A DNA stretch of 43,677 nucleotides from a virus. The notes beneath the pieces are model-generated. The model searched no databases and was not told the origin of the DNA. It saw only the letters and a program-made list of their open reading frames with translations. The stretch is from positions 1 to 43,677 of IMG/VR virus record IMGVR_UViG_3300045988_057586; one strand, 5' to 3'. The translations under genes were made by a program, and so were the position numbers. Of this stretch, positions 1-36,647 are shown piece after piece; the first letter of the stretch is position 1; every line of letters starts with the position of its first letter.

Positions 1-99
1 ATTTTTTTGTAACAGTGGTGGATGGCTGTGTATCACTCCGTAACAAAACGGTAGTGTGGGCAAAGGCGTGTCTGTATCTCATGTATCAGTGTTGTAACA
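1..99. repeat. Direct terminal repeat, left copy (identical to 43579..43677)
   Basis: First 99 nt equal last 99 nt exactly when compared by eye. Indicates a circularly closed assembly or terminal redundancy. Confidence 0.9.
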
Positions 100-278
100 T
101 ATCGTGCGATACACGAAAAAGCCAGGCACAGTCTGTGCTTTCTGGTATCTGTATCACTTGTATCATATAAATTCTCTGGAATTATAAAAATAATACAATA
201 GAGGACATAACGCCCGCGTAACGCGCATACACAGGCGCGTATAGGACGCAAGTGATACAGTGATACAGACTGTATGAT
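29..278. repeat. Non-coding iteron module A (paralogue of 15054..15327)
   Basis: About 9 copies of TGTATCA(C)/GTGATACA plus GTAACA motifs. Exact 38-bp core 144-181 equals 15194-15231, and 19-bp block 249-267 equals 15299-15317. Direct copies lie on the left, inverted copies on the right. Confidence 0.85.
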
Positions 279-283
279 GCCCC

Positions 284-670
284 TTATAGCGTTATAGTAT
301 CACTTTGCGCAACGGGGATACTTTCAAAGAACTTATTCGTCTTGGAACTGTACACATCCCAAAAGGCAAGGTAAGCAGTTGCACCGGAGGAACTGGTATA
401 TGTGATAACATAATACAGTTTTTCGGCACCCTTTGATGTTGTTATAGCATCTCCGTGGTACCTTGCCATAAAATTGCGTTCGCGTACCATGGTGTCTACA
501 GATTGTATCTGAGCAATCGGCAGATTGACAGTCTTGCCCTCGTTGTTGGAGAACACGAGCATATCACCGGAAATTTTTGCATTACAGGGGAAGTCCTGAC
601 GGAAACCGGGCAATCCCTCGTAGTGAGGGATGACTATACCGTCGGGTTTATTTTTGCGGGAAAAGAACAT
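284..670 (-). CDS. Hypothetical protein (cargo position at end of lysogeny operon)
   Basis: 128-aa ORF co-oriented with the ImmA/repressor genes and with non-repetitive composition. No motif recognised. Confidence 0.6.
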   Translation of the reverse strand: MFFSRKNKPDGIVIPHYEGLPGFRQDFPCNAKISGDMLVFSNNEGKTVNLPIAQIQSVDTMVRERNFMARYHGDAITTSKGAEKLYYVITYTSSSGATAYLAFWDVYSSKTNKFFESIPVAQSDTITL

Positions 671-696
671 AGTAAAATACTCCTTTTACTGAACTA

Positions 697-1131
697 TTAT
701 AAAGCTAAACTATTCATACGATATTCGGCCAGCTCGTATTTGACTCCAAGTATTTGAGCAACAGTGGCAACGGAATACTCGGCCAGATCGCGGAGGTCCT
801 CATCGGAGTAGAGAAGATCTATCGCAAATTGGTCGGCCTCTTTTTCGTAGCGGCTGGTGACCATCTGCGTACAGTTATCCATAAAGATGCGGTTAAGGCC
901 CTTATGCTGGAGCGCGTGTCCCAGCTCGTGGGCGCATACCCATTTCTGTTCCTGCTCTGGCATATCTGCTCTCAAGTAAATGATACGGCAGCGGCGTGCC
1001 TCTTGGTAGAATCCGCGGATTCCTTTAAGCGGAGTTTTGATGATGATAAAGCCCATAGCTTTGGCGATGCCAAAGGGGTCACGCGTACCATAGGTGCGAA
1101 CTAATTTTTCGGCAAGGGCTTTCTGGGTCAT
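697..1131 (-). CDS. ImmA/IrrE-family zinc metallopeptidase
   Basis: HELGHALQH (HEXXH) motif. Immediately downstream of, and co-transcribed with, an XRE repressor (ImmR-ImmA arrangement). Confidence 0.85.
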   Translation of the reverse strand: MTQKALAEKLVRTYGTRDPFGIAKAMGFIIIKTPLKGIRGFYQEARRCRIIYLRADMPEQEQKWVCAHELGHALQHKGLNRIFMDNCTQMVTSRYEKEADQFAIDLLYSDEDLRDLAEYSVATVAQILGVKYELAEYRMNSLAL

Positions 1132-1134
1132 GCG

Positions 1135-1608
1135 TTATTCCTTTCTGTATTTATACGGAGTAAATCTTGCTTTGTTTTTAGCTTTGGCAGCTTCTAAGCC
1201 TAAACGCATGGCGGATACAATACTTTCGCGGGCTTCCTGTGTCATCGGATCACCGTCAAACATCATATCGCCGCCAGCTTCAAGATCGGCCATGATGGAT
1301 TCCAGATCGTGGGCTATATCACGCTCGTCCTTTTTCGTAAGGACGGGCTTTTTTTCGTTTTCATGCTCATCCATACCGTCTATATAGCCTGCGTTATAGG
1401 CATCAAAAGCTGGTCGGGTAGCCGAATCAATGAGAACGGCAGGATCCACACCAAGGCCGTTGGCCAGGCGGTAAATGGTGTTGATGGAAGGCGTGCCGCC
1501 TTTCTTCCATGAGGTGACGCTGGAGGTGCTCATACCGAGCGATTTAAGCAATGCGGTAGGGCTGGTGCCCTTTTTGAAACAAGCCTCTTTCAGATTATCA
1601 AAAAACAT
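1135..1608 (-). CDS. XRE-family HTH repressor (CI/ImmR-like)
   Basis: N-terminal HTH (TALLKSLGMSTSSVTSWKKGGTPSINTIYRLANGLGV). Divergent from a Cro-like gene. Confidence 0.85.
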   Translation of the reverse strand: MFFDNLKEACFKKGTSPTALLKSLGMSTSSVTSWKKGGTPSINTIYRLANGLGVDPAVLIDSATRPAFDAYNAGYIDGMDEHENEKKPVLTKKDERDIAHDLESIMADLEAGGDMMFDGDPMTQEARESIVSAMRLGLEAAKAKNKARFTPYKYRKE

Positions 1609-3715: not shown

Positions 3716-4874
3716 GCACGCATTACTGGGACCGTCCAGCGCGTTCCGTTGGAGCCGCTGCACGAAAAGCGCCCGCTTGGAGGAGGGCCTGCCGGATACC
3801 GGCAGTGCCTATGCCACCGAGGGTACGCTGGCTCACCGGCTGGGTGAGCTGCTCCTGCGAGCTGAATACGAGGGCGCCGGTCTGACTGAACTGGCCGAAG
3901 TGCAGGCAGATTCGCAGTATTCTCGCGCTATGCAGGAGCACATGGAAGGCTATGCCGCCTTTGTCGGTGAGCGCATGGCCGAGGCACATACACGCTGCAA
4001 GGATCCGCTGATTTTCATCGAGCAGCGCATTGATGTGACCGAATATGTGCCGGAGGGCTTTGGTACGGCCGACTGCGTTATCATTGCAGACGGCATGATG
4101 GACGTAATTGATCTGAAATACGGGGCCGGGCACGCTGTTAGCGCCGAGGGCAATCCACAGATGCAGATCTATGCGCTAGGTTGCTTGCTGGCATTTGACC
4201 TGTTCTATGATATTCAGTCTATCCGCATGACTATCTATCAGCCGCGTTTAGACAGCATTTCCACCTCGATTATCGAGCGGGACAGCCTGCTGGACTGGGC
4301 GGAGAACGTGCTGAAACCGCGTGCGGAAATGGCCTATGCCGGTGAGGGCGAGTTCGCGCCCAGCGAGGAAACCTGCCGCTGGTGTAAGGCTGGAGCAATC
4401 TGCAAGGCTCGCGCCGAGTACCAACTGGAGATTGCTGCGAAGGAGTTTCAGGACGCCGCGACGATGGATAACACGGAGATCTCCGAGGTACTGGAACGCC
4501 TGCCGGGTCTGCTTTCGTGGGCGAAGCAGGTTAAGGACTACGCTGAAAAGGCAGCAGTCAACCAGGGCGAGAAGTTTCCCGGCTTCAAGGTAGTCGAGGG
4601 ACGTGCTAACCGGCGCTACGTTAACGAAGCTGCTATTGCCCGCAGGCTGAAAAAGGCGGGTTTTACAACCGCCGACATCTACAAGCCCAAGGAACTGCTC
4701 GGCATTACTGCCATGGAGAAGCTGGTGGGCGCCAAGAAGCTGGCGGAACTGGTCGGCGGTCTGATCGAGAAGCCGGCAGGCTCTCCGACACTGGTGCCGG
4801 AAACGGATAAGCGCCCAGAGCTGAATACTGCCGCCAAGGCCGCTGAGGACTTTGCGGACGAGGTGCAGCCATGA
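3705..4874 (+). CDS. PD-(D/E)XK nuclease, DUF2800/Cas4-like
   Basis: Motif D..DVIDLKYG plus a C-terminal Cys cluster (CRWCKAGAICKARA). Typical partner of DUF2815 and PolA in phage replication modules. Confidence 0.85.
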   Translation: MPSKHALLGPSSAFRWSRCTKSARLEEGLPDTGSAYATEGTLAHRLGELLLRAEYEGAGLTELAEVQADSQYSRAMQEHMEGYAAFVGERMAEAHTRCKDPLIFIEQRIDVTEYVPEGFGTADCVIIADGMMDVIDLKYGAGHAVSAEGNPQMQIYALGCLLAFDLFYDIQSIRMTIYQPRLDSISTSIIERDSLLDWAENVLKPRAEMAYAGEGEFAPSEETCRWCKAGAICKARAEYQLEIAAKEFQDAATMDNTEISEVLERLPGLLSWAKQVKDYAEKAAVNQGEKFPGFKVVEGRANRRYVNEAAIARRLKKAGFTTADIYKPKELLGITAMEKLVGAKKLAELVGGLIEKPAGSPTLVPETDKRPELNTAAKAAEDFADEVQP

Positions 4875-5170
4875 ACAAGATCTTTCATATCGTGAACGGA
4901 TCGTTCCATGCGAACCTTGATCCGGAGCATATGCACGAGATGCTGCTGTCAAACTGGCGTAAGATGGTTAGGTTGGCAGTCGCAGACTGGCGTAATGAGG
5001 ATACTCTGCGGGAGCTGAATGAGTGGTTTACGCAGAGAGCCCAAAGCGCCCAGCAGGAGTGGAAAATCGCTTCACAGGTATATGTGAACGGCTGGAAAGA
5101 TCCGAAAAACCATGGCCGTGAGGCAAGGCGGCGAAAACCGCCGCCTTGCCAAAGCGGTAAAGGCCGCTAA
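4871..5170 (+). CDS. Hypothetical protein
   Basis: 99-aa ORF with start overlapping the previous stop. The C-terminal approx 20 codons look non-protein-like (see finding at 5112). Confidence 0.55.
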   Translation: MNKIFHIVNGSFHANLDPEHMHEMLLSNWRKMVRLAVADWRNEDTLRELNEWFTQRAQSAQQEWKIASQVYVNGWKDPKNHGREARRRKPPPCQSGKGR

Positions 5171-5294
5171 GCGGTATTATGAGCGCTTGTGCAAGATGCA
5201 GGCAATTCTCACGGAAGCACAGAAACCGTGAGTTACAACCAAAGTTACATTACAAAACCATTCATACTAATTTAGAATTACGGAGGAATTTACT

Positions 5295-5855
5295 ATGTCT
5301 ACTAACCAGCCGACCAAGGTTATCACCGGCAAGTGCCGCCTGTCTTACTCTCATGTATGGGATGCTGTCAGCATTGACGGCAACTCTGATCCGAAGTTTG
5401 GCGCGTGCATCATTATCCCCAAGAACGACAAGGTGACCATCAAGAAGGTCAACGCCGCTATCCAGGCCGCCATCATGGAGGGTGTCAAGTCTAAGTGGAA
5501 GGGTAAGAAGCCGGTCAATCTCAAGCTGCCGCTGCGTGACGGTGACGAGGAGCGCCCGGACGATGAGGCTTTCGCGGGCTGCTACTTCCTGAACGCCAAC
5601 AGCAAGACCCGTCCGGGTATCATCGACCTGGCAAAGCACGAGATCATGGACACCTCGGAGGTTTACAGCGGCTGCTTCTGCCGTTTCTCCATCAACTTCT
5701 ATCCGTTCTCGACTTCGGGCAACAACGGTGTAGCCGCTGGCCTGAATAACATTCAGAAGGTTGCAGACGGTACGCCGCTGGGCGGCCGCAGCCGCGCTGA
5801 GGACGACTTCGACGACGATTACGAGGGTGACGAGGATTTCGGCGATCTCGAGTAA
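5295..5855 (+). CDS. DUF2815-family phage ssDNA-binding protein
   Basis: N-terminus VITGKCRLSYSHVW and an acidic tail DDFDDDYEGDEDFGDLE, typical of T7 gp2.5-like SSBs. Confidence 0.85.
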   Translation: MSTNQPTKVITGKCRLSYSHVWDAVSIDGNSDPKFGACIIIPKNDKVTIKKVNAAIQAAIMEGVKSKWKGKKPVNLKLPLRDGDEERPDDEAFAGCYFLNANSKTRPGIIDLAKHEIMDTSEVYSGCFCRFSINFYPFSTSGNNGVAAGLNNIQKVADGTPLGGRSRAEDDFDDDYEGDEDFGDLE

Positions 5856-5866
5856 GCAATTAACCG

Positions 5867-5903
5867 AACCCCGCTGCTGCAAAGGCGGCGGGGTTCTTAT
5901 CAT
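5867..5903 (+). terminator. Intrinsic terminator after the SSB gene
   Basis: GAACCCCGCTGC / GCGGCGGGGTTC hairpin followed by a T-rich tract. Confidence 0.6.
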
Positions 5904-5953
5904 TATAATTCGTTTGAGCTGTTTTAAGCTCTGGCTTGAGAGGAGAATAAGCG

Positions 5954-7144
5954 ATGGAAGCAGTTCGCAAGCGTAAATCTCCGCCGCTCGGCAAGCGCAC
6001 CTGGACACCGGAGGACGAAAACTATCTGGCAGAGAAGTGGGGCTATGCATCAGTGCCCGCCATCGCAAAGAAGCTGAACCGCACGGAAAACGCGGTCATT
6101 GTCCGGGCACGGCGGCTCGGCTTGGGAGCTGTGCTGATGGCAGGTGGGTACGTCACGCTGAACCAGCTGCTCGCCACAGTGACGGGAAGGGGACGCGGCA
6201 ACACCTACCAGCGCAAAAGCTGGGTGGAAAATCGCGGTCTGCCGGTGCACAGGAAGAAGGTCCAACGGTGCAGCTTTTCTGTGGTCTATTTGGAGGAGTT
6301 CTGGGAGTGGGCGGAGCGTAATCGCAGTTTCCTCGACTTCTCGAAAATGGAGCCGCTGGCGCTCGGCTGGGAACCGGCATGGGTCGCAGAGCAGCGCAAA
6401 AAGGATTACCGCGCCTGCGCTCTCCAACGCAAAGACCCGTGGACGGCAGCCGAGGACAGCCGCTTGAAAATGCTGCTCAGTCAGCACAGATATACATGGG
6501 CAGAACTGTCGGAGATGCTGCACCGCACGACCGGCGCGATCCAGCACCGGTGCCGTGACCTCGGCATTAAGGATCGCCCAGTCAAGGCAGACAATCACGG
6601 TAAAAGCGCGGTGTGGAACGAGCGCGACTATGCAGTTCTGGCGGACGGTATCCGCCACGGTGACAGCTACATGGCGATCGGACAGGCGCTCGGCAAGTCG
6701 GAAAAGGCCGTGCGCGGTAAGGTCTATACGGTATATCTCACCGAAAGCGCAGATAAGGTGCGCGAATACATGGGCAACGGTCCGTGGGGAACAGGTGCGC
6801 CGGAGCCGAAAGTCAAGCAGGCGGTGCACTTGTCCACTACAAGGACGGAGGTGCGAAAGCAGCTGTCATATCTGGCAGGGCTACTGCGGAAACGGGCGAA
6901 TGACCTGGGCTACGATCCGTATTGGCAGCGTTTTATGTGTCAGCACTGGGACGACTTCGGCGGCTGCTCTGCCGGCTGCGCGAATTGTGATGACTGCACA
7001 GAATTTCGGCGTATCCGTCCGCAGTATTGCGCTCGGTGCGGCGGCACGTTCTACGAGAGGAAGGAGAACCGTTTCTGCGGCGCCTGCCGAACGGCACGGA
7101 AGAAGAAAGCACAGCGGCATTGGTGCCGCGTCAATCATAGCTGA
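5954..7144 (+). CDS. DNA-binding protein with three SANT/Myb-like repeats and a Cys-rich C-terminus
   Basis: Three W..E(D/E)..L...-type repeats (TWTPEDENYL, PWTAAEDSRL, VWNERDYAVL). C-terminal CxxC clusters (CANCDDC, CARCGG, CGAC). Confidence 0.7.
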   Translation: MEAVRKRKSPPLGKRTWTPEDENYLAEKWGYASVPAIAKKLNRTENAVIVRARRLGLGAVLMAGGYVTLNQLLATVTGRGRGNTYQRKSWVENRGLPVHRKKVQRCSFSVVYLEEFWEWAERNRSFLDFSKMEPLALGWEPAWVAEQRKKDYRACALQRKDPWTAAEDSRLKMLLSQHRYTWAELSEMLHRTTGAIQHRCRDLGIKDRPVKADNHGKSAVWNERDYAVLADGIRHGDSYMAIGQALGKSEKAVRGKVYTVYLTESADKVREYMGNGPWGTGAPEPKVKQAVHLSTTRTEVRKQLSYLAGLLRKRANDLGYDPYWQRFMCQHWDDFGGCSAGCANCDDCTEFRRIRPQYCARCGGTFYERKENRFCGACRTARKKKAQRHWCRVNHS

Positions 7145-7163
7145 ACAGGAGAGGAGAACAACC

Positions 7164-7373
7164 ATGGCAAAATGTAAATTCTGCGGACAAGGCGTGCGGA
7201 CAGCACCCGTGTTCCATCCGGCCTGCTGGGAGCAGGCGGCGAACAAACTTGCAAGCGAGTTCTGTGATGAGTATTGCAAGTTCCCGTTTGAGATGGACTA
7301 TGAGGCGTTGGTAGACAAATGCGAGCAGTGCCCGATGGTACGGCTGAAAGAGTTGGGAGGTAAAAACGTATGA
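7164..7373 (+). CDS. Small Cys-rich hypothetical protein
   Basis: ATG 7164 follows GGAGAGGAGAA. Contains CKFCGQ...C..., C..YC and CEQC motifs. The rest of ORF 6555 is an out-of-frame overlap. Confidence 0.6.
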   Translation: MAKCKFCGQGVRTAPVFHPACWEQAANKLASEFCDEYCKFPFEMDYEALVDKCEQCPMVRLKELGGKNV

Positions 7374-7702
7374 TGCTGGAACTGACAGGTAAGGACATTC
7401 TTGCCCTGACCAACGAGAGCAAGCGCAAGGCCGTTCTGGCCGACTGGCAGAACTGGGGCATCTGGCACAAGGCACCTGAGATCGGACTGTTTGTGTATCG
7501 GCTCGATCTGCCGGACGGCAGCTTTTTCACCGCCAGCTGGTATGCCGGTGACGACTTCTTTCCGGGCGGCGGTACGCATAACGTCAACTGTCCGCGTTAC
7601 AACTTTGGCGGCGCTGACGGCAAACTCAAGGCAGGTAGCGTCGCGGAAAGTGTGCTGACGGACAAACTCAAAGAGCTGCGGAAGGAGCTGCTGGCAAAAT
7701 GA
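7370..7702 (+). CDS. Hypothetical protein
   Basis: 110-aa ORF, overlapping the neighbouring genes at both ends. Confidence 0.65.
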   Translation: MMLELTGKDILALTNESKRKAVLADWQNWGIWHKAPEIGLFVYRLDLPDGSFFTASWYAGDDFFPGGGTHNVNCPRYNFGGADGKLKAGSVAESVLTDKLKELRKELLAK

Positions 7703-8427
7703 AAGCACCTGCTTTTCAAACCGAGGCACAGAAAACTTTCTGCCAGACGTTCCAAAAGCTATGCAGCCATACAAGTGCATGGCAGGTGTGGAGCGACTTT
7801 GTACAGCTGACTGCGATTGCGTTGTCAAACCGCTGTGATATGCAGGCAAAGCGCGAAAAGCAGTATAACGAGATCATGCAGCAGTACGACAGAGCGGAAC
7901 AGAGCGTTTTCGCAGAACTGTTTGCGCAAATGGTGACGGCACTGGAAGAGCAGCCGGAACAGGATTTCCTTGGTGATATGTTTATGCGGCTGGAACTTGG
8001 CAGTCATTGGCATGGTCAGTTTTTCACTCCGTACAGTGTGTGCAGGCTGCTGTCGTCGGTAACGATCCGAAGTGCTGTCGAACAGGTAGCAGAACACGGA
8101 TACTGTAAGGTGAACGACTGTGCGTGCGGTGCGGGTGCAACGCTGATCGCGGCGCGAAACAGTCTGAAACACACGGGCATCGGAACGGATCAGGCGTTGT
8201 TCGTAGGGCAGGACGTAGACCGCACGGCGGCGCTGATGTGTTACATTCAACTCAGTCTGCTTGGCTGTGCCGGTTATGTGGTGATTGCGGATACACTGTC
8301 AAACCCGGCAGTGGGAAAAATCATTCCGCGCCGGAAAGCAGGGCAGGACATCTGGTTCATGCCGGGATTGTATTTGTCAGATGCCTGGTGTGAACGGATA
8401 CGATGGGAGATGATGATGTGCAACTGA
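7699..8427 (+). CDS. N6-adenine DNA methylase-like protein lacking the catalytic NPPF/Y motif
   Basis: Contains GQFFTP (motif X), NDCACGAGATL (motif I) and IADTL. The ORF ends before any NPP[FYW] motif. Confidence 0.6.
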   Translation: MKAPAFQTEAQKTFCQTFQKLCSHTSAWQVWSDFVQLTAIALSNRCDMQAKREKQYNEIMQQYDRAEQSVFAELFAQMVTALEEQPEQDFLGDMFMRLELGSHWHGQFFTPYSVCRLLSSVTIRSAVEQVAEHGYCKVNDCACGAGATLIAARNSLKHTGIGTDQALFVGQDVDRTAALMCYIQLSLLGCAGYVVIADTLSNPAVGKIIPRRKAGQDIWFMPGLYLSDAWCERIRWEMMMCN

Positions 8428-9449
8428 CAGAAAAATTGATCGACCGATTGCTGGATGTGTATATACAGTCAGACAGCGACCTGCAGATTGTCAAGAGTCA
8501 GCTGGAGATCATTCTGTATGATTACGATGTCCGCCCAAAGGAAACAGCGATCGTGCCCTATGGCAAAACGCGCAATGAGGTGCTGATGAAGCGATTTGCA
8601 GTCGCCAAGGCGGTTGCGGGTCGCAGTCCGCGCACGATAGAGGTTTATCTGCAAGCTGTGGGGCTGTTCCTGCGCACAATCCAGAAAAATGCGGACGAGG
8701 TGCGCAGCGAGGATATACAGGTGTATATCGCTCAACTGATGACCAAAGGACGAACGAAGACATACTGCAATGACGTTAGACGGTTTCTGTCCAGCTTCTA
8801 CACCTATTTGACTAAAGAAGAGATTATAACCAGAAATCCGATAGATCGCGTGGAAGCTATTAAGTGCAAGCGCAGAAAAGAGCCGGCGTTTACTGATATG
8901 GAAGTTGAGCGAATGCGTGTAGCTTGCAGAACGTCATTTGAAACAGCAATAATCGAAACGCTGCTGTCTACCGGATGCCGCGCCGCAGAGGTGTGTGCAA
9001 TCCGAAAGGACGACATCAACGGCGATAAAATTACTGTGACCGGTAAAGGCGACAAGGTGCGGACGGTATACCTGAGTGCAAGAGCTCTTGTTGCGATTAA
9101 TGCATATCTCAAGGAACGCAGCGACAACAACGAATATCTGTTTCCGAGGCGCATTACGAAGCCATCACGCAAGGAGGCTTGGTTTCGGAATCCGGATATG
9201 GTCGCAGAGGGGCATTTCTCACGCGAAAGCGTGAATTGCTTGTGTAAGCGCGTTGCTGAAAGGGCGGGCGTTCAGGGCGCTCATGCACACCGTTTTCGCC
9301 GGACTTGTGCAACATTTGCTCTGCGGCGTGGTATGCCGATCGAAATGGTTTCCATGATGCTCGGGCATGAAGAACTCTCCACGACACAGATTTACTTAGA
9401 TGTGCGAGAGAGCGATCTTCAGATCGCACACGAAAAATACGTTTTTTGA
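8403..9449 (+). CDS. Tyrosine recombinase (XerC/D-like), second of three in the genome
   Basis: Catalytic residues TGCRAAE, HAHRFRRTCAT and LGHEELSTTQIYLDV (R..HxxR..Y). N-terminal SAM-like core-binding domain. Confidence 0.85.
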   Translation: MGDDDVQLTEKLIDRLLDVYIQSDSDLQIVKSQLEIILYDYDVRPKETAIVPYGKTRNEVLMKRFAVAKAVAGRSPRTIEVYLQAVGLFLRTIQKNADEVRSEDIQVYIAQLMTKGRTKTYCNDVRRFLSSFYTYLTKEEIITRNPIDRVEAIKCKRRKEPAFTDMEVERMRVACRTSFETAIIETLLSTGCRAAEVCAIRKDDINGDKITVTGKGDKVRTVYLSARALVAINAYLKERSDNNEYLFPRRITKPSRKEAWFRNPDMVAEGHFSRESVNCLCKRVAERAGVQGAHAHRFRRTCATFALRRGMPIEMVSMMLGHEELSTTQIYLDVRESDLQIAHEKYVF

Positions 9450-9459
9450 GGTGATAACC

Positions 9460-9786
9460 GTGAAAACCGATGAACTGATTATGGCTTTGCAGAAACTGAA
9501 AGTCCAGACCGGCTCTCTGGCCTGCCTCGGCTGCGGGCATGAGCACAACTGCGGCGTGCATGGCTGCGCGATCGCGCGAGAGGCTGCGGTGCGGCTGAGC
9601 CTGTATGAACACGCGCTGAAACAGGTGACGAAGGAGCGTGATGCAGCGGTCAAACAGCTGCGTCGCATGGCTGACTGTGATACCTGCAAGCATGATCACC
9701 CGTGCGGCATGGATGGCGATCCGTGTACTGCATGTACGACCGGCCAGTGTTGGGAATGGAACGGAGGCGCGCCATGTACATTCTGA
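9460..9786 (+). CDS. Cys/His-rich hypothetical protein
   Basis: GTG 9460 lies 6 nt after GAGGTGAT. Contains CLGCGHEHNCGVHGC and CDTCKHDHPCG..CTAC motifs. Confidence 0.6.
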   Translation: MKTDELIMALQKLKVQTGSLACLGCGHEHNCGVHGCAIAREAAVRLSLYEHALKQVTKERDAAVKQLRRMADCDTCKHDHPCGMDGDPCTACTTGQCWEWNGGAPCTF

Positions 9787-10064
9787 CTGGTGACAAGAAG
9801 CAGATCATCAACTCGGATTTCGTGGAGCGCTTTTGCATCTCGGAAAAGCCGGATGCGGCGCTCATCGTCGCAAGCTATGACAAGAACGCCAAGGTAGTAA
9901 CTGTGGCGCGGTATCGTGATCTGCGGGAAGCGCAAAAGGTGCTGGGCGAACTGCTCTGCGCCATCGCAGGCGGACAGGCGTATTACACCATGCCGGAAAG
10001 CCTGCTGTATGCGGAGCAGCACATCAGCAAAGATGCACGCATCAAGCGGAAAGGCGGCAGCTGA
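9774..10064 (+). CDS. Hypothetical protein
   Basis: ATG 9774 (MYILTGDKK...) overlaps the previous gene's end. 96 aa. Confidence 0.6.
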   Translation: MYILTGDKKQIINSDFVERFCISEKPDAALIVASYDKNAKVVTVARYRDLREAQKVLGELLCAIAGGQAYYTMPESLLYAEQHISKDARIKRKGGS

Positions 10065-10066
10065 TT

Positions 10067-10306
10067 ATGACCGATAGAGAACTGATACTGCTGCACGACC
10101 TGCTTGAAGATTTGGAAACAGACGAGGGCGTGTGCTACAAGACCCGAAGCAGCACCTGCGCCACGGCCTGCCCGCTGTCATACGCCGGTGCCTTTGGTGA
10201 TAACATTTGCCTGCCGTCTGTCCTCGGTCGCCGGGTAACACGGATGATCCGGGATAAGCAGCTGCGTGAAAGAGAAAAGGGAGGAGTAACTCATGGCAAA
10301 GACTAA
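10067..10306 (+). CDS. Hypothetical protein
   Basis: 79-aa ORF in the early operon. Confidence 0.55.
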   Translation: MTDRELILLHDLLEDLETDEGVCYKTRSSTCATACPLSYAGAFGDNICLPSVLGRRVTRMIRDKQLREREKGGVTHGKD

Positions 10307-10672: not shown

Positions 10673-12640
10673 ATGGCAAAGATTATGGCTGTTGATATAG
10701 AAACCTATTCCGGCGTTGATCTGGTCGCTTCCGGTGTCCGCCCGTACAGTGAGGCGGACGACTTTGAGATTCTGCTCATTGCTTATAAGGTGGACGATGA
10801 GCCGACACGAGTGCTGGATCTGGCTGGCGGCGATAAGCTGCCTGATGCTACGGAATTTACCGCGTTGCTGTTGAATCCGAATGTGCTCAAGACTGCCTAC
10901 AATGCAGCATTTGAGCGCACCTGTCTGGCTCGATGGTTCCGGTCGCCGATGCCGCCGGAGCAGTGGAGCTGCACCATGGTGCTGGCCTCCAATCTCGGTC
11001 TGCCGGGTACACTGGCCGGAGCTGGTGCCGCATTGGGACTGGACAAGCAGAAGATGACTGAGGGCAAGGAGCTGATTCAGTATTTCTGCAAGCCGTGCCG
11101 ACCGACCAAGGCCAACGGCGGCCGTACCCGCAATCTTCCGAGTGATGCACCGGAAAAGTGGGAGCTGTTCAAGAAATACAATATCCGCGATGTTGATGTT
11201 GAGGTGGACATTCGGCAGCGGCTTTCCGGCTTTTTCATTCCGGAGGCCGAACGGCTGGCATGGCAGCATGACCAGCATATCAATGACTTGGGCGTTCGCG
11301 TGGATCAGGTGCTCATGCGCCAGGCGCAGGAGCTTAGCAATCAGTACAATACCCGCTTGATGGACGAGGCCAAAGACCTTACCGGATTGGATAATCCCAA
11401 GAGCGCGCCGCAGGTCAAGCGCTGGCTGCTGGAACACGAGGGCATTGAGGTGCCGAGCCTCAACAAAGAAGCCATGCCGGAGCTGATGCAGCAGGTGAAA
11501 AGTCCGGAGGCACGCCGTATGCTGACAATCCGGTCGGAGCTGTCTAAGACATCTGTCACCAAGTATGAGGCGATGGAGCGTGGTCTGTGCCATGATGGCC
11601 GAGTGCATAATCTGCTCCAGTTTTACGGAGCCAACCGCACCGGTCGCTGGGCGGGCCGCTTGGTACAGGTACAAAACCTGCCGCAGAACAAGCTCAAGGA
11701 CCTCGAACTGGCGCGTGAGCTGGTACGGGACGGTGAGTTTGAACTGTTGGAAATGGCGTTTGGTTCGCCGCCGTTCGTCCTGTCGCAACTGATCCGCACG
11801 ACCTTTATCCCGTCCGAGGGCTGCCGCTTTATCGTTGCCGATTACAGCGCCATTGAGGCGCGTGTAATTGCGTGGCTGGCGGGTGAGCCGTGGGTACTGG
11901 AAGAATTCAAGGGCGACGGCTTGATCTATGAGGCAACCGCCGCGATGATGTTTCACAAGGTCAAGAACGACATTAAGAAGGGCGGCCCGCACGCGGATCT
12001 TCGTCCGAAAGGCAAAGTCGCTACACTGGCCTGCGGCTATCAGGGCGGTGTCGGCGCGCTGAAACGCATGGGCGCTCTGGAAAGTGGTATCCCAGAGGAA
12101 GAACTTCCGGGCATCGTCAATCGCTGGCGGCGTGCCAATCCGCATATTGTTCGGTTCTGGTATGATGTCGAGAACGCCGCGATCCGTGCGGTACAGGGCG
12201 AGCGGGTGGCGCTCAGACACGGCCTCAAGTTCTTCTGTGAACGAGGGTACCTGTTCATTCAGCTGCCGTCCGGCCGTAGACTGGCATATTTTCAGCCGCG
12301 CTTAGAGCCGGAACCGAAGTTCAATAAAGAGGGAATCACCTACATGGGCGTCGATCAGGAGAAGAAAACATGGTCGCGCCAGAAGACTTACGGCGGAAAA
12401 CTGGTAGAGAACATTGTGCAGGCAACGGCGCGTGACTGCCTGCGTGATACCATGCAGGCACTGTGGAAAGTTGGCTACGAGATTGTGTTTCATGTCCACG
12501 ATGAGGTTATCATCGACGCACCTAAGGGGCAGGGCTCCTTGGAAGATGTTCTGGAGATTATGGGCCACAGTCCGCGCTGGGCGTTCGGCCTGCCGCTCAA
12601 AGCAGCCGGTTTTGAAGCGCCGTTTTACATGAAGGACTAA
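10673..12640 (+). CDS. Family A DNA polymerase with 3'-5' exonuclease domain
   Basis: Exo I motif AVDIETYS. Pol motif A DYSAIEARVIAWL, motif B RPKGKVATLACGYQGG, motif C VHDEVIID. Confidence 0.95.
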   Translation: MAKIMAVDIETYSGVDLVASGVRPYSEADDFEILLIAYKVDDEPTRVLDLAGGDKLPDATEFTALLLNPNVLKTAYNAAFERTCLARWFRSPMPPEQWSCTMVLASNLGLPGTLAGAGAALGLDKQKMTEGKELIQYFCKPCRPTKANGGRTRNLPSDAPEKWELFKKYNIRDVDVEVDIRQRLSGFFIPEAERLAWQHDQHINDLGVRVDQVLMRQAQELSNQYNTRLMDEAKDLTGLDNPKSAPQVKRWLLEHEGIEVPSLNKEAMPELMQQVKSPEARRMLTIRSELSKTSVTKYEAMERGLCHDGRVHNLLQFYGANRTGRWAGRLVQVQNLPQNKLKDLELARELVRDGEFELLEMAFGSPPFVLSQLIRTTFIPSEGCRFIVADYSAIEARVIAWLAGEPWVLEEFKGDGLIYEATAAMMFHKVKNDIKKGGPHADLRPKGKVATLACGYQGGVGALKRMGALESGIPEEELPGIVNRWRRANPHIVRFWYDVENAAIRAVQGERVALRHGLKFFCERGYLFIQLPSGRRLAYFQPRLEPEPKFNKEGITYMGVDQEKKTWSRQKTYGGKLVENIVQATARDCLRDTMQALWKVGYEIVFHVHDEVIIDAPKGQGSLEDVLEIMGHSPRWAFGLPLKAAGFEAPFYMKD

Positions 12641-12651
12641 GGAGGGATTAT

Positions 12652-15057
12652 GTGAAAGTGCAATATGATGGTCCTGTTACGTTGGCGGTCGGTTCGTCCC
12701 GTACCGCCGCGCACTGGAAGAACAAGACCATGCAGTGGAGTGCATTTCTGGACACAATCCAGACTACTACGCAGACCCGCGAAACGCTGGCCGAGTATCT
12801 GAAGCTGCCGAAAAGCAAGCAGGATGCTATCAAGGACGTTGGCGGTTTTGTAGGCGGCTGGCTCAAGCAGGGACGGCGTAAGGCGGAGAACCTGGAGCAC
12901 CGTTCCATGCTCACGCTGGACGCTGACTTTGCCACGATGGATCTGTTGGAAAGCCTGTCTATGTTTTATGGCTGCGCTGCCGCTGTCTATTCGACCCATA
13001 AGCACTGCATGGACACACCGCGCCTGCGCCTGATCGTGCCGCTGACCCGGCAGCTGTCTGGTGACGAATATCAGGCGGTTGCCCGCATGCTGGCGAACGA
13101 CCTGGGTATGGACCTGTTTGACGATACGACCTATCAGCCGACCCGCCTTATGTACTGGCCGAGCACTCCGGTCGATCAGCAGTATTACTTTGACTGTACA
13201 GATGGCCCGTGGCTGAATCCGGACACGCTGCTGGCGCGGTATCCGGACTGGCGAGATACGTCTTACTGGCCGGAGAGCAGTCGTGCAGCCAATGTTCGGC
13301 ACACGGCGGCAAAGCATCAGGGTGACCCGACTGCAAAGCCGGGTGTCGTGGGTGCGTTCTGCCGTACTTATAATGTAGAGCAGGCGATCGAACGCTTTCT
13401 GCCGGATCGCTATACCGCCTGTGAAATGGAAGGGCGCTACACCTACGTTGGCGGCTCGACCTCGGCCGGACTGGTTATCTATGACGGCGGTCTGTTTGCC
13501 TATTCCAATCACGCGACCGATCCGGTCAGCGGCCGGCTGTGCAATGCTTTCGACCTGGTTCGTTTGCATCTGTACGGAGAACAGGACAGCGAGGCCGCCG
13601 AGGGTACGCCGGTGAATAAGCTGCCGTCCTATGCGGCTATGGTCGAGCTGGCACGCACGGACGAGGCCGTCAAGCTGACCAGTGCCCGCGAACGGCTTGA
13701 CCAGGCACGCGGCGACTTCGATATTCCAGATGAGGGTCAAGCTGATGATACATGGATTGCGCAGTTGGAAGTGGACAAGCGCGGTGTTCCGATGCAGACC
13801 ATTCAGAACGCCTATATTATCCTCTCGAACGATCCACTGCTGAAAGGCACCCTGGCCTATAACTGTTTCAAAGACCGTATCGTCGCCATTCAGAATCTGC
13901 CGTGGAAAGAGGTGCAGGACACCGTGAACGGCGATGCATGGACGGATGCCGACGACAGCGAACTCCGCCGGTACATGGAGCTGGCATATCGCATTACCGG
14001 TAAGGAGCGCATCATGGACGCAGTGAGCGGCGTTGCCCGCGCCAACACGATCCACCCCGTTCGCAGCTTTCTCAAGGGGCTGGAGTGGGACGGTGTAGAG
14101 CGACTGGACACGCTGCTGATTGATTATCTGGGCGCCGAAGATACGCCGTACATTCGCGCAGTTACTCGTAAGGCATTCACAGCTGCGGTAGCGCGTATCG
14201 TGAACCCAGGCTGTAAATTCGACTATGTGCTCACACTGGCCGGTCCGCAGGGACGAGGCAAGTCCACGCTCATCAATAAAATGTCGTGCGGGTGGTATAC
14301 GGACAGCTTGGCAGGTATCGGCACCAAGGAAGCCTACGAGGGTATTCAGGGCTTCTGGCTTGTGGAGCTGGGAGAACTGGCAGCCATGAAGAAGACAGAG
14401 ATTGAAGTCACAAAGAACTTTATCTCTAAGCAGGTGGACAGCTACCGCGCACCATACGGTCGCCGCGTAGAGGATCACAAGCGTCAGTGTGTCTTTTTCG
14501 GCACAACCAACAGTGCGGCGTTTCTCCGTGACGATACCGGCAACCGCCGTTTCTGGCCGGTACGTCTGGGCGATGAGCCGCCGGCGCGAACTGTTTGGAA
14601 TGACCTGACGACTGATATTATCCATCAGCTGTGGGCGGAAGCGGTCATTCGCTACGAAGAGGGCGAGTTGCTGACTTTGACCGGCGAGCTGGAAGCCGCA
14701 GCCTGTGAGCAGCAGCGCGAGTTTACAGAGGACGACCCGCGTGCCGGTGAAGTCCAGCTGTATCTTGACCGCTTGCTGCCGGAGGACTGGGAGGACAGGG
14801 ACAAGCTGGATCGCCGTGCTTGGCTTTCAGATGATTTCGGGACCGCCGAGGGCACGAAGCCTCGCATGACTGTATGCGTGGCCGAAGTCTGGAATGAATG
14901 TTTCAAGAGCGACATCGAGCGGTTGTCCAGGCAGGATAGTCAGGCGGTAGCAGCTATTTTACGACGTATCCCTGGCTGGGTCGAGGAAAAAGGACGGCAG
15001 CGCTGCGGTATCTACGGACTTCAAAAGCGTTTTCGTCGCGTAGATGTAGACCTGTGA
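12652..15057 (+). CDS. DNA primase / VirE-family P-loop helicase
   Basis: 801 aa. Walker A motif GPQGRGKST in the C-terminal half. Synteny after PolA in the DUF2800/DUF2815 module. Confidence 0.9.
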   Translation: MKVQYDGPVTLAVGSSRTAAHWKNKTMQWSAFLDTIQTTTQTRETLAEYLKLPKSKQDAIKDVGGFVGGWLKQGRRKAENLEHRSMLTLDADFATMDLLESLSMFYGCAAAVYSTHKHCMDTPRLRLIVPLTRQLSGDEYQAVARMLANDLGMDLFDDTTYQPTRLMYWPSTPVDQQYYFDCTDGPWLNPDTLLARYPDWRDTSYWPESSRAANVRHTAAKHQGDPTAKPGVVGAFCRTYNVEQAIERFLPDRYTACEMEGRYTYVGGSTSAGLVIYDGGLFAYSNHATDPVSGRLCNAFDLVRLHLYGEQDSEAAEGTPVNKLPSYAAMVELARTDEAVKLTSARERLDQARGDFDIPDEGQADDTWIAQLEVDKRGVPMQTIQNAYIILSNDPLLKGTLAYNCFKDRIVAIQNLPWKEVQDTVNGDAWTDADDSELRRYMELAYRITGKERIMDAVSGVARANTIHPVRSFLKGLEWDGVERLDTLLIDYLGAEDTPYIRAVTRKAFTAAVARIVNPGCKFDYVLTLAGPQGRGKSTLINKMSCGWYTDSLAGIGTKEAYEGIQGFWLVELGELAAMKKTEIEVTKNFISKQVDSYRAPYGRRVEDHKRQCVFFGTTNSAAFLRDDTGNRRFWPVRLGDEPPARTVWNDLTTDIIHQLWAEAVIRYEEGELLTLTGELEAAACEQQREFTEDDPRAGEVQLYLDRLLPEDWEDRDKLDRRAWLSDDFGTAEGTKPRMTVCVAEVWNECFKSDIERLSRQDSQAVAAILRRIPGWVEEKGRQRCGIYGLQKRFRRVDVDL

Positions 15058-15327
15058 TGTATCACAACGACCGCTGAAGAACCGCATTTTGTATCAGAAT
15101 GTAACACAATCACAAAATCTTATGTATCACTTGTATCAAGACTGTAACAAGTGATGTGATACACAAAAAAGGTAGACAGCGTCTATGCTTTTCGGTATCT
15201 GTATCACTTGTATCATATAAATTCTCTGGAAGTATAAAAGTAGTATATAGAGAGTATGAGCGCCCGCATAGCACGCCCGCGTAGGCGTATAAGGGCAACA
15301 AGTGATACAGTGATACATGAGATACAC
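15054..15327. repeat. Non-coding iteron module B (paralogue of 29..278)
   Basis: TGTATCA(C) at 15058, 15090, 15123, 15132, 15200 and 15210. GTGATACA at 15156, 15302 and 15310, and GAGATACA at 15320. Shares the 38-bp and 19-bp exact blocks with module A. Confidence 0.85.
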
Positions 15328-15337
15328 AGGAGGCTAT

Positions 15338-15631
15338 ATGGAAAAAGACATCGAAAGCTATCTGCGTAAGCGGGTAACGGCAGCAGGCGGCCTCGCGTTG
15401 AAATTGGTTTGCCCCGGATTTACCGGAGTCCCGGATCGGCTTATCCTTTTCTCCGGCGGCCGTGTCTGCTTCGCGGAGTTAAAGGACACCGGGCAGAAAC
15501 CGCGCAAACGGCAGCTGCGTGTACATGGTATGCTGCGGGATCTTGGCTTTACAGTTTATGTTCCCGACAGCAAGGCCGCCGTTGACAAGATGATGGAGGA
15601 GGTGGTGCCGAATGAAGTTCATACCCCATGA
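15338..15631 (+). CDS. VRR-NUC domain nuclease
   Basis: GVPDRLILF...CFAELK (PD..ExK) motif. ATG follows AGGAGG. Confidence 0.85.
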   Translation: MEKDIESYLRKRVTAAGGLALKLVCPGFTGVPDRLILFSGGRVCFAELKDTGQKPRKRQLRVHGMLRDLGFTVYVPDSKAAVDKMMEEVVPNEVHTP

Positions 15632-15728
15632 GTACCAGAAGTTCTGCGAGGACTTCCTGATGGACAAGCCCGCAGCAGGTCTTTTACTGGATATGGGCTT
15701 AGGCCCAGCAAGACGGTTATCACGCTGA
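15612..15728 (+). pseudogene. N-terminal 38 codons of the SNF2 helicase, out of frame with the rest
   Basis: Encodes MKFIPHEYQKFCEDFLMDKPAAGLLLDMGLG, then the frame is lost. The downstream frame continues SKTVITLTAAA. Confidence 0.6.
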
Positions 15729-15745
15729 CCGCTGCTGCAGGCTGG

Positions 15746-16999
15746 TTGTACGACCGGTTTGAAGTCAACAAGGTTCTGGTGGTGGCGCCGCTTCGTGTGG
15801 CGGAGGACACATGGACCAAGGAAAGCGCAAAGTGGGATCACTTGCAGGGGCTTCGCGTGGTTCGCGTTCTGGGTAGTCAGGCGCAGCGGATCTGTGCCTT
15901 GGAAACCGATGCCGATATTTATTGCATCAACCGAGAGAATATCCCGTGGCTGGTAAAGTATTACGGCACAGACTGGCCGTTTGACGGCGTGGTTCTGGAC
16001 GAGCTTTCCAGTTTCAAGAGCCCAAGTTCCAAGCGGTTCAAGGCGATGCGTAAGGTGCGGCCGCTTATCAAGCATATTGTCGGCCTGACCGGCACACCCA
16101 GTCCGAACGGCTTGATTGACCTGTGGGCGCAGATCTATCTGCTGGATCAGGGCAAGCGCTTGGGCCGAACGCTGACAGAATACCGCAACCGTTATTTCAA
16201 TCCCGGTCGCCGCAATGGGTATGTTGTTTATGACTGGGTACCGAAGGTCGGAGCAGAGGACGAGATATACCGCCGTATTTCCGATATTTGCATCAGTATG
16301 AAAGCCTGTGATTATCTGAAACTGCCCGAGCGGGTTGACGTAGTTCGCACTGTCAAGTTGGATAATGAAGCACAGACAGTCTATACCGAAATGGAAAAAG
16401 AGGCCGTGCTGGAACTTGGACCAAACGAGATAGTCGATGCCGGTACCGCCGCTGTGGTTTCGGGCAAACTGCTGCAAATTGCAAACGGCGCGGTGTATGA
16501 CGAAGATGGGAAAACTCATATCATTCACGAGTCCAAATTGGACACCTTGGAAGATGTGATAGAAGCTGTCAACGGTCGGCCGGTGCTGGTGTTCTATGCG
16601 TATCAACACGATTTGGAGCGAATCGTGCAGCGGTTTCCGCAGGCACGCAAGCTGGAGGGCTCAGCGGAGATTGATGCGTGGAACCGTGGAGAAATACCGA
16701 TTCTGCTGGCGCATCCTGCCGGAGCTGGTCATGGACTTAACCTGCAAGCGGGAGGAAACCATATCGTGTGGTTCGGTCTGACCTGGTCGCTGGAGCTGTA
16801 TCAGCAGGCGAATGCCCGCATTTATCGGCAGGGTGTAAAGGGTGAACGGGTTACTATTACGCATTTGGTAGCCGAGGGCACTATCGACGAAGATGTTATG
16901 CGAGTGTTGGACGGCAAAGCGACCCGGCAAGATGCTTTGCTGGAAGCCGTTAAGGCTCGTGTAGAGAAATACCAATTGAACGGAAAGGAGATCACATGA
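15746..16999 (+). CDS. SNF2-family helicase (main body; frame is open from 15632)
   Basis: Contains VLDELSSFK (DExx box), TGTP and helicase C motifs (LLAHPAGAGHGLNLQ, QQANARIYRQG). Confidence 0.9.
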   Translation: MYDRFEVNKVLVVAPLRVAEDTWTKESAKWDHLQGLRVVRVLGSQAQRICALETDADIYCINRENIPWLVKYYGTDWPFDGVVLDELSSFKSPSSKRFKAMRKVRPLIKHIVGLTGTPSPNGLIDLWAQIYLLDQGKRLGRTLTEYRNRYFNPGRRNGYVVYDWVPKVGAEDEIYRRISDICISMKACDYLKLPERVDVVRTVKLDNEAQTVYTEMEKEAVLELGPNEIVDAGTAAVVSGKLLQIANGAVYDEDGKTHIIHESKLDTLEDVIEAVNGRPVLVFYAYQHDLERIVQRFPQARKLEGSAEIDAWNRGEIPILLAHPAGAGHGLNLQAGGNHIVWFGLTWSLELYQQANARIYRQGVKGERVTITHLVAEGTIDEDVMRVLDGKATRQDALLEAVKARVEKYQLNGKEIT

Positions 17000-22658: not shown

Positions 22659-22733
22659 GCCGGCATAGCTCAGAGGCAGAGCAGGGCGCTTTTAACGCTC
22701 AGGTCGGGATTTCAAAATTCCCTGCCGGCACCA
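22659..22733 (+). tRNA. tRNA-Lys (anticodon UUU), CCA encoded
   Basis: Folded by hand. Acceptor stem GCCGGCA/TGCCGGC, D arm GCTC-AGAGGCA-GAGC, anticodon arm GGGCG-CTTTTAA-CGCTC, T arm GGGAT-TTCAAAA-TTCCC, then discriminator A and CCA. Confidence 0.8.
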
Positions 22734-35776: not shown

Positions 35777-36647
35777 CTATCATCTGAATACGCCCGGCTA
35801 CGAGGAGTTCGGCGATGTCGAAGTGCTCAACCAGAACTTTGCCGCGATCGACGCCGAGCTGAAAAAGAATGCTGACGCGGTGGGCGAACGTGTCAAGACC
35901 ACTGAACTGGCCGAGAAGGTCAAGCAGACCGTCAAGGACGGCAGTCTGACCGCAAAGGATCTCGGCGCCGTATCAGCTGATACCAAGGGCAAGGCCGATG
36001 GTGTGGCCGGTCTGGACGGGAATGGCAAAGTGCCCTCCAACCAGCTGCCTGAAATGAATTACGAGGGCAAGGGCGCCGTAGATGAGCATAACAAGAGTAC
36101 ATCGGCGCACGCTGCACTGTTTAAGGCAATTAACGATTTGCTTGCGGCGCACGTCAAGGACACCGGCAACCCGCACAAGGTCACACCGGCGCAGATTGGT
36201 GCTATCGCGCTGACCCTGCTCGGCCAGCCGAACGGTCCGGCGGTGCTGGATAAGGACGGCCGTCTGACCGCTGACCAGCTCGGTGGCATGATCGGCGGCG
36301 AGAGCGACAGCGGCACCGGTGAACTGCAGGACACCGAGATGGAGGTCGGCACGATCACCAATGCAGGGGCGGGCTGGAACACCTACCATTTTAGAGAGGC
36401 GTTTGAGGGTATCCCGCAAGTTGTATGTCAGGCTGAGGACTTTGACGGCGTTGTACTGGTCAAGGACATTACCGCCGAGGGATTTTTGTACTGCCTGCGT
36501 ACCTTGCAGACCGGCAGTTACTACACCGGTAGCGCGACGGGCACCAATCCGTCGCACAGCGCGAACACGCTGGTCAGCGGCACAACGACCACGGCTGACA
36601 GTATCAAGATTAACTACATCGCAGTAGAGTATGGAGGCGAGCGATAA
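35760..36647 (+). CDS. Tail fibre protein (XkdV position)
   Basis: N-terminus NYHLNTPGYEEFGDVEVLNQNFAAID is typical of prophage fibre proteins. Confidence 0.75.
   Translation: MEQTPNYHLNTPGYEEFGDVEVLNQNFAAIDAELKKNADAVGERVKTTELAEKVKQTVKDGSLTAKDLGAVSADTKGKADGVAGLDGNGKVPSNQLPEMNYEGKGAVDEHNKSTSAHAALFKAINDLLAAHVKDTGNPHKVTPAQIGAIALTLLGQPNGPAVLDKDGRLTADQLGGMIGGESDSGTGELQDTEMEVGTITNAGAGWNTYHFREAFEGIPQVVCQAEDFDGVVLVKDITAEGFLYCLRTLQTGSYYTGSATGTNPSHSANTLVSGTTTTADSIKINYIAVEYGGER

Follow-up and report, generated by a model that had tools for sequence, protein, structure and literature searches.

Two origin-type TGTATCA iteron modules, probably arrays for a SaPI Rep-like primase-helicase, in a temperate tailed phage

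Genes and features at the locus

The IMG/VR virus record IMGVR_UViG_3300045988_057586, considered here over its whole length of 43,677 nucleotides (the window), carries two similar non-coding modules of about 260 bp, A (8-267) and B (15058-15326), which are in direct orientation and are both built from repeats (iterons) of the 7-bp word TGTATCA. An earlier note on this DNA, made from the sequence alone, had placed one of them after the primase-helicase gene and the other between the integrase gene and the end of the repressor operon, and this setting is confirmed: module B lies between the primase-helicase stop codon (15057) and the ribosome-binding site (GGAGG) and ATG (15338) of a VRR-NUC-like gene, which come after its inverted iterons, and module A is bordered by int on one side and by the end of the cI/ImmA operon on the other. 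Gene annotations are from Pfam and PHROG searches. The features of main concern are the following.

12652-15057, plus strand: primase-helicase of 801 amino acids, with an N-terminal primase, a superfamily 3 (SF3) helicase of the VapE/D5 type and a predicted C-terminal DNA-binding domain
14892-15054, plus strand: C-terminal domain of the primase-helicase, codons ~747-801 (EVWNECF...ILRRIPGW...KGRQRCGIYGLQKRF), the proposed determinant of iteron specificity
15058-15326, plus strand: module B, an iteron module of origin type that begins right behind the stop codon of the primase-helicase gene and whose place and anatomy recur in relatives
15058-15163, plus strand: left iteron array of B, with TGTATCA at 15058, 15090, 15123 and 15132, the variant TGTAACA at 15100 and 15143, and an inverted copy at 15157-15163
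15194-15231, plus strand: 38-bp core of B, with the central direct iterons at 15200-15206 and 15209-15215
15216-15260, plus strand: AT-rich centre of B, a proposed DNA-unwinding element as read from the sequence
15261-15298, plus strand: GC-rich block of B, with imperfect palindromes (fold z = -0.75)
15303-15326, minus strand: inverted iterons of B, TGATACA at 15303 and 15311 and AGATACA at 15320
8-267, plus strand: module A, the paralogous copy, in direct orientation
8-113, plus strand: left iteron array of A, partly degenerate, with TGTATCA at 29 and 82, one-mismatch copies at 8, 73 and 93, and an inverted CGATACA at 107-113
144-181, plus strand: exact 38-bp core of A, with the central direct pair at 150-156 and 159-165
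166-210, plus strand: AT-rich centre of A
211-248, plus strand: GC-rich block of A, of a sequence specific to the A lineage (fold z = -1.70)
253-267, minus strand: inverted iteron pair of A (GTGATACAGTGATACA)
43579-43677, plus strand: assembly overlap repeating 1-99 (the start of module A), hence no third copy of the module

The end overlap (1-99 against 43579-43677, 100% identity) indicates a circular assembly and, because the terminal 99 bp are repeated, the true genome length is 43578 bp. The TGTATCA words at 43607 and 43660 are thus duplicates of those at 29 and 82. The right boundary of module A can be set at 267/268, other A-type copies diverging right after the inverted pair.

Anatomy of the modules

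The likeness of the two modules is real: they align without a gap at an offset of 15050 (73-267 against 15123-15317), with 81% identity in a stretch of 123 nt and 74% in one of 57 nt, and the exact 38-bp core that had been noted earlier is found at 144-181 and again at 15194-15231. On both strands of the window TGTATCA occurs 19 times, compared with 3.28 +/- 1.86 expected, and none of 100 shuffles reached 19. The modules hold 17 of the 19 words, two of these within the duplicated end. Exact copies number nine in B (plus strand 15058, 15090, 15123, 15132, 15200 and 15209; minus strand 15157, 15303 and 15311) and six in A (plus strand 29, 82, 150 and 159; minus strand 253 and 261), and each module has 12 when one mismatch is allowed. 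The earlier figure of eight to ten copies per module is thus right for B; in A it is reached only with degenerate copies included.

The layout is common to both. The left part is an array of direct iterons closed by a single inverted copy, followed by an A-run, a small hairpin, a T-rich stretch and a pair of direct iterons 9 bp apart. The right part consists of an AT-rich segment of ~45 bp, a GC-rich block of ~38 bp and inverted iterons 8-9 bp apart, two in A and three in B. The description in the earlier note, with direct copies on the left and inverted ones on the right, is correct as a whole, except that it overlooked the inverted iteron at the end of the left array, at 107-113 in A and 15157-15163 in B. 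Both the AT-rich stretch and the GC-rich block that differs in sequence between the copies were also seen, but the hairpins of this block are not clearly better than those of shuffled sequence (z = -1.70 in A and -0.75 in B). With z-scores from +0.55 to -1.7 overall for the folding of GC-rich blocks, a conserved hairpin is not established. A short core word, TGTATCACTTGTATCATATAAATTC, is exact in almost all module copies aligned or retrieved, the retrieved copies having themselves been selected by this word; the only exception is the B copy (L007) of contig 000202, with two changes.

Two other ways of reading these segments were rejected. A structured RNA was dropped after an Rfam scan of the whole window, in which no family matched the modules and a tRNA-Lys was the sole match. 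A hidden gene was dropped as well, the open frames of 63-88 codons shifting in strand and length among relatives (at most 55 codons in L288), with no reading frame kept across the modules of relatives.

With regard to smaller structures, the hairpin between the A-run and the T-rich stretch has a 5-bp stem (GCACA/TGTGC at 123-143 in A, TAGAC/GTCTA at 15176-15193 in B), is offset by 3 nt between the modules and was scored terminator-like in A only; the hairpins that a terminator scan found in module A were only weakly terminator-like. Between the start of int and module A, a plus-strand terminator-like hairpin (tcccgctctggtgttggtagcaccagggcggga then T7) is present at 43549-43586 (into 1-7) and faces transcription antisense to int. 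It may insulate module A from read-through. A T-run also precedes the module at the A position in L295.

The primase-helicase and its likeness to SaPI initiators

The protein of 801 amino acids matches the Pfam family VapE-like_dom (E=1.6e-78), phrog_256 ("DNA helicase") over its full length and phrog_9765 ("DNA primase") over its N-terminus. Its sole solved relative is PDB 7pds_A, matched at E=2.4e-77 with the single sequence and at E=3.6e-110 with a profile of five family members (profile positions 365-792, chain residues 15-464 of 477), in an alignment that extends through the C-terminal domain. 7PDS is the complex of Rep1 from the Staphylococcus aureus pathogenicity island SaPI1 with DNA (PMC9371898). 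The family is large, with relatives of the primase-helicase in at least 570 IMG/VR stretches and matches in 1135 GenBank phage records, among them those of phages that infect Staphylococcus, Enterococcus, Clostridium and Listeria.

The Rep proteins of SaPIs are self-loading SF3 helicases that double as initiators, and a winged-helix domain within their C-terminal domain recognises short iterons (PMC9371898). The SaPI origin comprises 6-12 iterons directly downstream of the rep open reading frame (ORF) with an AT-rich region near the centre, its conserved feature being at least two oppositely oriented iterons per side, where one hexamer is thought to be bound on each side (PMC9371898). Most of this can be found in module B and its gene, and also in the central part of module A. 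The proposed initiator is an SF3 protein of the VapE/D5-like kind, homologous to Rep1 according to the profile match, and as in PriRep5 of SaPI5 a single chain comprises both primase and helicase (PDB 7OLA is also cited for the SaPI module). The first iteron of B, at 15058, comes right after the end of the stop codon at 15057, and the same is true in relatives, while module A, 15 kb from the gene, lacks this downstream position. The numbers of iterons, nine exact and three with one mismatch in B, six and six in A, are in the SaPI range. In both modules the AT-rich centre is flanked by at least two opposed iterons: direct at 150 and 159 and inverted at 253 and 261 in A, direct at 15200 and 15209 and inverted at 15303, 15311 and 15320 in B. 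Differences exist nonetheless. The host of the modules is a complete temperate tailed phage akin to prophages in metagenome-assembled genomes (MAGs) of Clostridia, rather than a satellite island, and it has a second full copy 15 kb off, whereas a single ori downstream of rep is described for SaPIs (PMC9371898).

Iteron words and the C-terminal domain in relatives

Modules of like anatomy can be found directly after the primase stop codon in relatives, in association with different iteron words: GGTTGCCG in L009 and L010, GGAACAAA in L012, TGTAAACA in L013, ATTGCCG in L288 (a Clostridia MAG) and further words among 80 loci. AT-rich centres like that of B occur in these relatives with other words, and a word repeated at least five times after the primase stop is present in about half of the 89 loci surveyed. 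In other searches, blastn against GenBank phages gave no related module, a 25-mer search of species-representative genomes found nothing, and exact-word scans with GGTTGCCGNNGGTTGCCG and TGTATCACTTGTATCA gave mostly chance matches in unrelated contigs.

The comparison with L009, an ~80%-identical relative with another iteron word, is especially informative. In 50-residue bins, the two primases are 68-100% identical as far as residue 750, and 40% in the last bin; L008, which has the TGTATCA iteron, is 88% identical to the window in the last C-terminal bin. At the DNA level, identity to L009 is about 65-88% on both flanks; it drops from ~64-86% ahead of 14892 to 28-50% between there and ~15324, one 50-nt bin reaching 60%. 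This interval of low identity takes in the entire module together with the ~55 final codons of the primase and, since the drop is confined to both, it can be concluded that the C-terminal domain and the iterons were exchanged as one cassette. L009 and L288 resemble each other in both the C-terminal domain and the iterons. Among pairs that are 70-90% identical in the body of the protein, which are not independent of one another, the average C-terminal identity is 81% for the 11 pairs that share an iteron and 55% for the 15 that do not. This co-variation supports a specificity for the iteron that would be set by the C-terminal domain of the primase-helicase.

The same comparison bears on the possibility that the modules are transcription-control regions, where a regulator bound to the TGTATCA arrays would switch a promoter within the AT-rich centre, one that in B would drive the VRR-NUC/SNF2/late genes. 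Module B does lie directly upstream of the block with the VRR-NUC, SNF2, DUF1492-like and terminase genes, and its second central iteron gives a TTG... hexamer ~17-19 bp before TATAAA, with similar hexamers in relatives, all read by eye. However, a promoter scan called no plus-strand promoter within 14500-16000, and module A, in the same orientation, faces the 3' end of genes that converge on it and has no plus-strand gene downstream. Changes of the iteron word accompany those in the primase C-terminus but leave the VRR-NUC/SNF2 sequence downstream of B ~70-88% identical to that of L009 (compared up to ~16400). Moreover, the Myb-like protein, which had been proposed earlier as the regulator together with a DUF1492-like one, is encoded at 5954-7144 in a segment missing from relatives with both modules. 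In contig 172866, for instance, segment 5948-10269 is replaced by ~470 bp and both modules are kept, so that they are independent both of the Myb-like protein and of the tyrosine recombinase encoded at 8403. Thus the idea of protein-binding arrays stands, but the proteins named for it are unlikely; for the DUF1492-like one this is said with less force, the comparison up to ~16400 stopping short of its gene at 16996. Transcription control as the function of the modules is accordingly improbable, but a secondary promoter role for B is possible since -35/-10-like hexamers overlap the second central iteron, and this module may have a dual role as origin and promoter.

A second possibility raised by the earlier note, that the modules are invertons or recombination sites used by the extra tyrosine recombinases to flip the centre or to split the circle into parts of 15 and 28.5 kb, is highly improbable. 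It has in its favor the imperfect inverted arms (149-169 and 240-260 in A, 86% complementary), the two direct copies per genome and the three tyrosine recombinases. The arms are nevertheless just pairs of iterons; the layout recurs across the family with unrelated words, in relatives without an adjacent recombinase, and opposed iterons are a documented origin layout. An invertible segment of 70-85 bp would also be unusually short. The recombinase at 8403 is absent from relatives with both modules, and no promoter was called in the spacer of B. An orientation-agnostic arm search, the only search able to show a flipped centre, returned four contigs, all of them unflipped. Regarding the splitting of the circle, no A/B hybrid junction was present among 18 copies from other contigs (12 metagenome stretches and 6 IMG/VR), the flanks of each matching its type.

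Conservation and distribution of the second copy

In a comparison of A with B by alignment column, identity is 94% at iteron positions and 65% elsewhere (Fisher p=8e-6), a contrast unchanged when the exact core is left out. From this it follows that selection maintains the repeated word in both copies. In related phages, the A-type copies and the B-type copies each make up a conserved lineage of their own. Both types can be found in five contigs, namely the window, IMG/VR 172866, IMG/VR 000202, OGQE01001285.1 and OLNY01002109.1, with the order int, module, lysogeny operon in all five. The second copy is present in three different int/lysogeny contexts, the module at the A position being always ~110 bp upstream of the int start, and its direct orientation relative to the replication genes is kept with both neighbours replaced. 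The central pair, the AT-rich centre and the inverted pair are intact in every A copy, and in the A copy of contig 000202 (L004) the left array has more intact iterons than in the window. Contigs 3300045988_105475 and ERZ809296 NODE-988, of the 80-87% lineage, have the B copy in their partial contig sequence.

In OLNY01002109.1 (L295), which appears to be an integrated prophage, a proC-like host ORF is followed by a 570-residue ORF, the module and three lysogeny genes, and later by the primase and the start of module B. The related TGTATCA prophages have an ORF of 564-570 residues in the integrase position (L295 89-2617; L297 9438-11132); a tblastn search with the window integrase gave no match to it. 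With TGTATCA prophages that carry an ORF other than a tyrosine integrase in the int slot, the replication module can be said to travel with different integration modules. The A copies of the OLNY01002109.1 lineage are 72-75% identical to the B of their own lineage and 60-62% to the A of the window, which suggests that the module was duplicated into this slot more than once or that A and B undergo gene conversion. As L295 is integrated next to an apparent host proC, a parS/partition reading of the modules was also dropped; no ParA or ParB match was found among 30 early-region and selected late proteins scanned.

Outside this group the second copy was not found in 79 distant loci within the available sequence, ~35 of them with at least 9.4 kb upstream. 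L288, with a primase of 77% identity, has int, ImmA and repressor genes upstream and no second array. Because it is absent in association with other iteron words, the second copy is dispensable for replication in the family and may have a role other than initiation.

A neutral relic of duplication, or a functionless hitch-hiker of the int region, would account for the absence of A from most of the family and for its partly degenerate left array. It fits poorly with the conservation of iterons over spacers, with the central pair, AT-rich centre and inverted pair being intact in all A copies, and with the three int/lysogeny contexts; in addition, a direct repeat of ~250 bp with a 38-bp exact core should carry a risk of deletion. 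The chance that A is such a relic is accordingly slim. As a full paralogue retained by selection, A is quite probably a functional binding site for the same initiator.

Paired loci in other replicons

Among known systems, SPP1 and P4 come nearest to a pair of iteron loci. In the Bacillus phage SPP1, oriL and oriR, ~13 kb apart and of the same organisation, are both bound by gp38, and a proposed role of the second copy is to halt forks and thereby to trigger the theta-to-sigma switch (PMC6316719). The likeness to the window lies in the two similar loci, with direct repeats plus an AT-rich element, in a circularised genome of ~44 kb (here 15 kb apart in 43.6 kb). Unlike the SF3 primase-helicase, gp38 is a separate origin-binding protein that acts with a helicase loader and a DnaB-type helicase. 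Furthermore, oriL is inside gene 38, and SPP1 is a virulent phage without int or lysogeny genes.

In the satellite phage P4, the crr locus is required in cis. The P4 record (NC_001609) has crr at 4291-4590 directly after the alpha gene (4636-6969) and next to attP/int, and ori at 9086-9809, 4.7 kb away; ori and crr share type-1 repeats. A primase-helicase with two repeat loci, one of them directly after its gene, is thus common to P4 and the window, but ori and crr differ in architecture whereas A and B are full paralogues. Moreover, BLASTP with P4 gpalpha gave E=0.052 in the P-loop region only, short of homology. The module system belongs to the SaPI Rep-type family only, the likeness to SPP1 and P4 being functional.

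In the plasmids P1 (oriR/incA) and RK2 (oriV), iterons are followed by AT-rich and GC-rich segments, and a second array can regulate the first by titration or handcuffing. Their initiators, of the RepA/TrfA type, are winged-helix proteins without helicase activity, and the control arrays lack an unwinding element. Module A differs from these control arrays in that it retains this element.

These systems frame the possible roles of module A. That it fires as an independent second origin, by analogy with oriL/oriR of SPP1, may be put at slightly under even chances. A less probable alternative, unlikely on balance, is that A would be bound by the initiator as a non-firing control site. Variants of this could be a fork roadblock like oriR of SPP1, handcuffing like incA of P1, a cis partner like crr of P4 or a coupling to int expression. 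Consistent with a control site are the need of P4 for two separate iteron loci, the partly degenerate left array of A in the window, the dispensability of the second copy in the wider family and the constant ~110 bp to the int start, as well as the phage-encoded nuclease, single-stranded DNA-binding protein and resolvase-like protein that could process a stalled fork. Against it, A retains the complete anatomy of an origin, beyond iterons alone, and the AT-rich centre is equally conserved in A and B copies. At a similarly low likelihood, the second copy would be a selected control device instead of a spare origin, restricted to the TGTATCA-specificity clade. It could be an initiator-bound fork barrier for the switch from theta to concatemer replication, or a link between replication and the expression of int or excision in temperate phages of Clostridia.

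Proposed initiation at the modules

Both modules are probably origin-type arrays for the primase-helicase as an initiator of the SaPI Rep/PriRep kind. The observed basis for this is the anatomy of the origin, the homology of the initiator, the joint swap of C-terminal domain and iterons, and the conservation of iterons in both copies. Module B, very probably the origin read by the C-terminus of the primase-helicase, would be the ancestral origin of the phage family, and A is its full paralogue, with iterons, AT-rich centre, GC-rich block and inverted pair. Iteron-type origins next to the primase had been listed in the earlier note among several alternatives; this one is supported and can now be specified as of the SaPI Rep type.

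Several observations weigh against an origin of this type. The iteron is of 7 bp here and of 5-6 bp in SaPIs, and the GC-rich block has no counterpart in the published description of the SaPI origin. Cumulative GC skew is uniformly positive and rises with the coding strand, giving no origin signal. A profile of the C-terminal domain alone, run against PDB, reaches the C-terminal domain of Rep1 at only E=0.011, and single-sequence AlphaFold2 of the last 170 residues, with a predicted local distance difference test score (pLDDT) of 41, did not show a winged-helix fold. The co-variation rests on few independent swap events, in addition to the dependence between pairs mentioned above. Finally, promoter-like hexamers overlap the second central iteron, and the second copy is absent from all examined relatives with other iteron words.

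Initiation could proceed as follows, the inferred steps being the binding of the C-terminus to TGTATCA, melting, firing and the specific role of A. After induction, the early operon would produce the primase-helicase of 801 amino acids, whose C-terminal domain (~aa 747-801) would bind the 7-bp word TGTATCA. Hexamers may assemble on both sides of the AT-rich/GC-rich centre of ~85 bp, at the two direct iterons on its left and the two or three inverted ones on its right, with the upstream array of 5-7 iterons helping in their recruitment. The AT-rich centre would then melt and the helicase load itself, after which the N-terminal primase and the family-A polymerase of the phage would start synthesis.

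While this type of origin is already known, it is new that the origin is duplicated in full, that the second copy keeps its place beside int within one specificity clade, and that C-terminal domain and iterons have been swapped so cleanly in nature. A testable origin assignment is thereby provided for a large family of temperate phages of Firmicutes with a primase-helicase of the VapE/VirE type. The swapped cassette (~55 codons plus the module) amounts to a natural specificity experiment and points to the residues that would read the iteron. The second origin-type copy next to int is a genetic handle on initiator-bound origin copies as fork barriers or regulators, in line with the SPP1 proposal. 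Regarding annotation, such modules would be better entered as rep_origin than as promoter, inverton or repeat region.

Neighbouring genes and other observations

The genes around the modules, together with the polymerase mentioned above, are listed below.

42353-43465, minus strand: tyrosine integrase (int), true start MPRKKPTRK at 43465, left neighbour of module A
284-1608, minus strand: lysogeny operon, right neighbour of module A, on which it converges
1135-1608, minus strand: helix-turn-helix (HTH) repressor of the lysogeny operon
697-1131, minus strand: ImmA/IrrE peptidase of the lysogeny operon
284-670, minus strand: ORF of 128 amino acids, last gene of the lysogeny operon
10673-12640, plus strand: family-A polymerase
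15338-15631, plus strand: VRR-NUC-like endonuclease/Holliday-junction resolvase (phrog_93, E=4e-27; phrog_5702), first gene after module B

The 128-residue ORF has no Pfam or PHROG match and is a candidate for an accessory gene expressed by the prophage, e.g., for superinfection exclusion. The early genes on the plus strand are, in order, those for a Cro-like HTH protein, a DUF2800 nuclease and an Enc34-type single-stranded DNA-binding protein, followed by a 4.3-kb block that includes a Myb-like protein, an N6-methylase-like ORF and a tyrosine recombinase. Downstream of the VRR-NUC gene, the plus strand encodes an SNF2 helicase, a DUF1492-like regulator (16996), the terminase and the late genes. 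The tRNA-Lys (anticodon UUU) is located among the head genes at 22659-22733.

The 4.3-kb accessory block (5948-10269), in place of which close relatives L002 and L003 have ~470 bp, harbors a Myb-like/GcrA-like regulator (5954-7144), an ORF without assigned family, an N6_Mtase-like ORF of 242 amino acids (7699-8427), a third tyrosine recombinase (8403-9449) and further small ORFs. The methylase fragment and the recombinase could constitute a phase-variable modification unit. In the tail region, inverted repeats of 58 nt (37218-37275 and 38191-38248, 93% complementary, plus two overlapping pairs) sit at the 3' end of a 324-residue ORF without Pfam match (36647-37621) and enclose ~0.9 kb with a reverse-strand ORF of 193 amino acids (37824-38405). 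A tyrosine recombinase gene (38448-39467) comes directly after the repeats, and the region 37049-39467 looks like an invertible C-terminus of a tail fibre, that is, a host-range switch.

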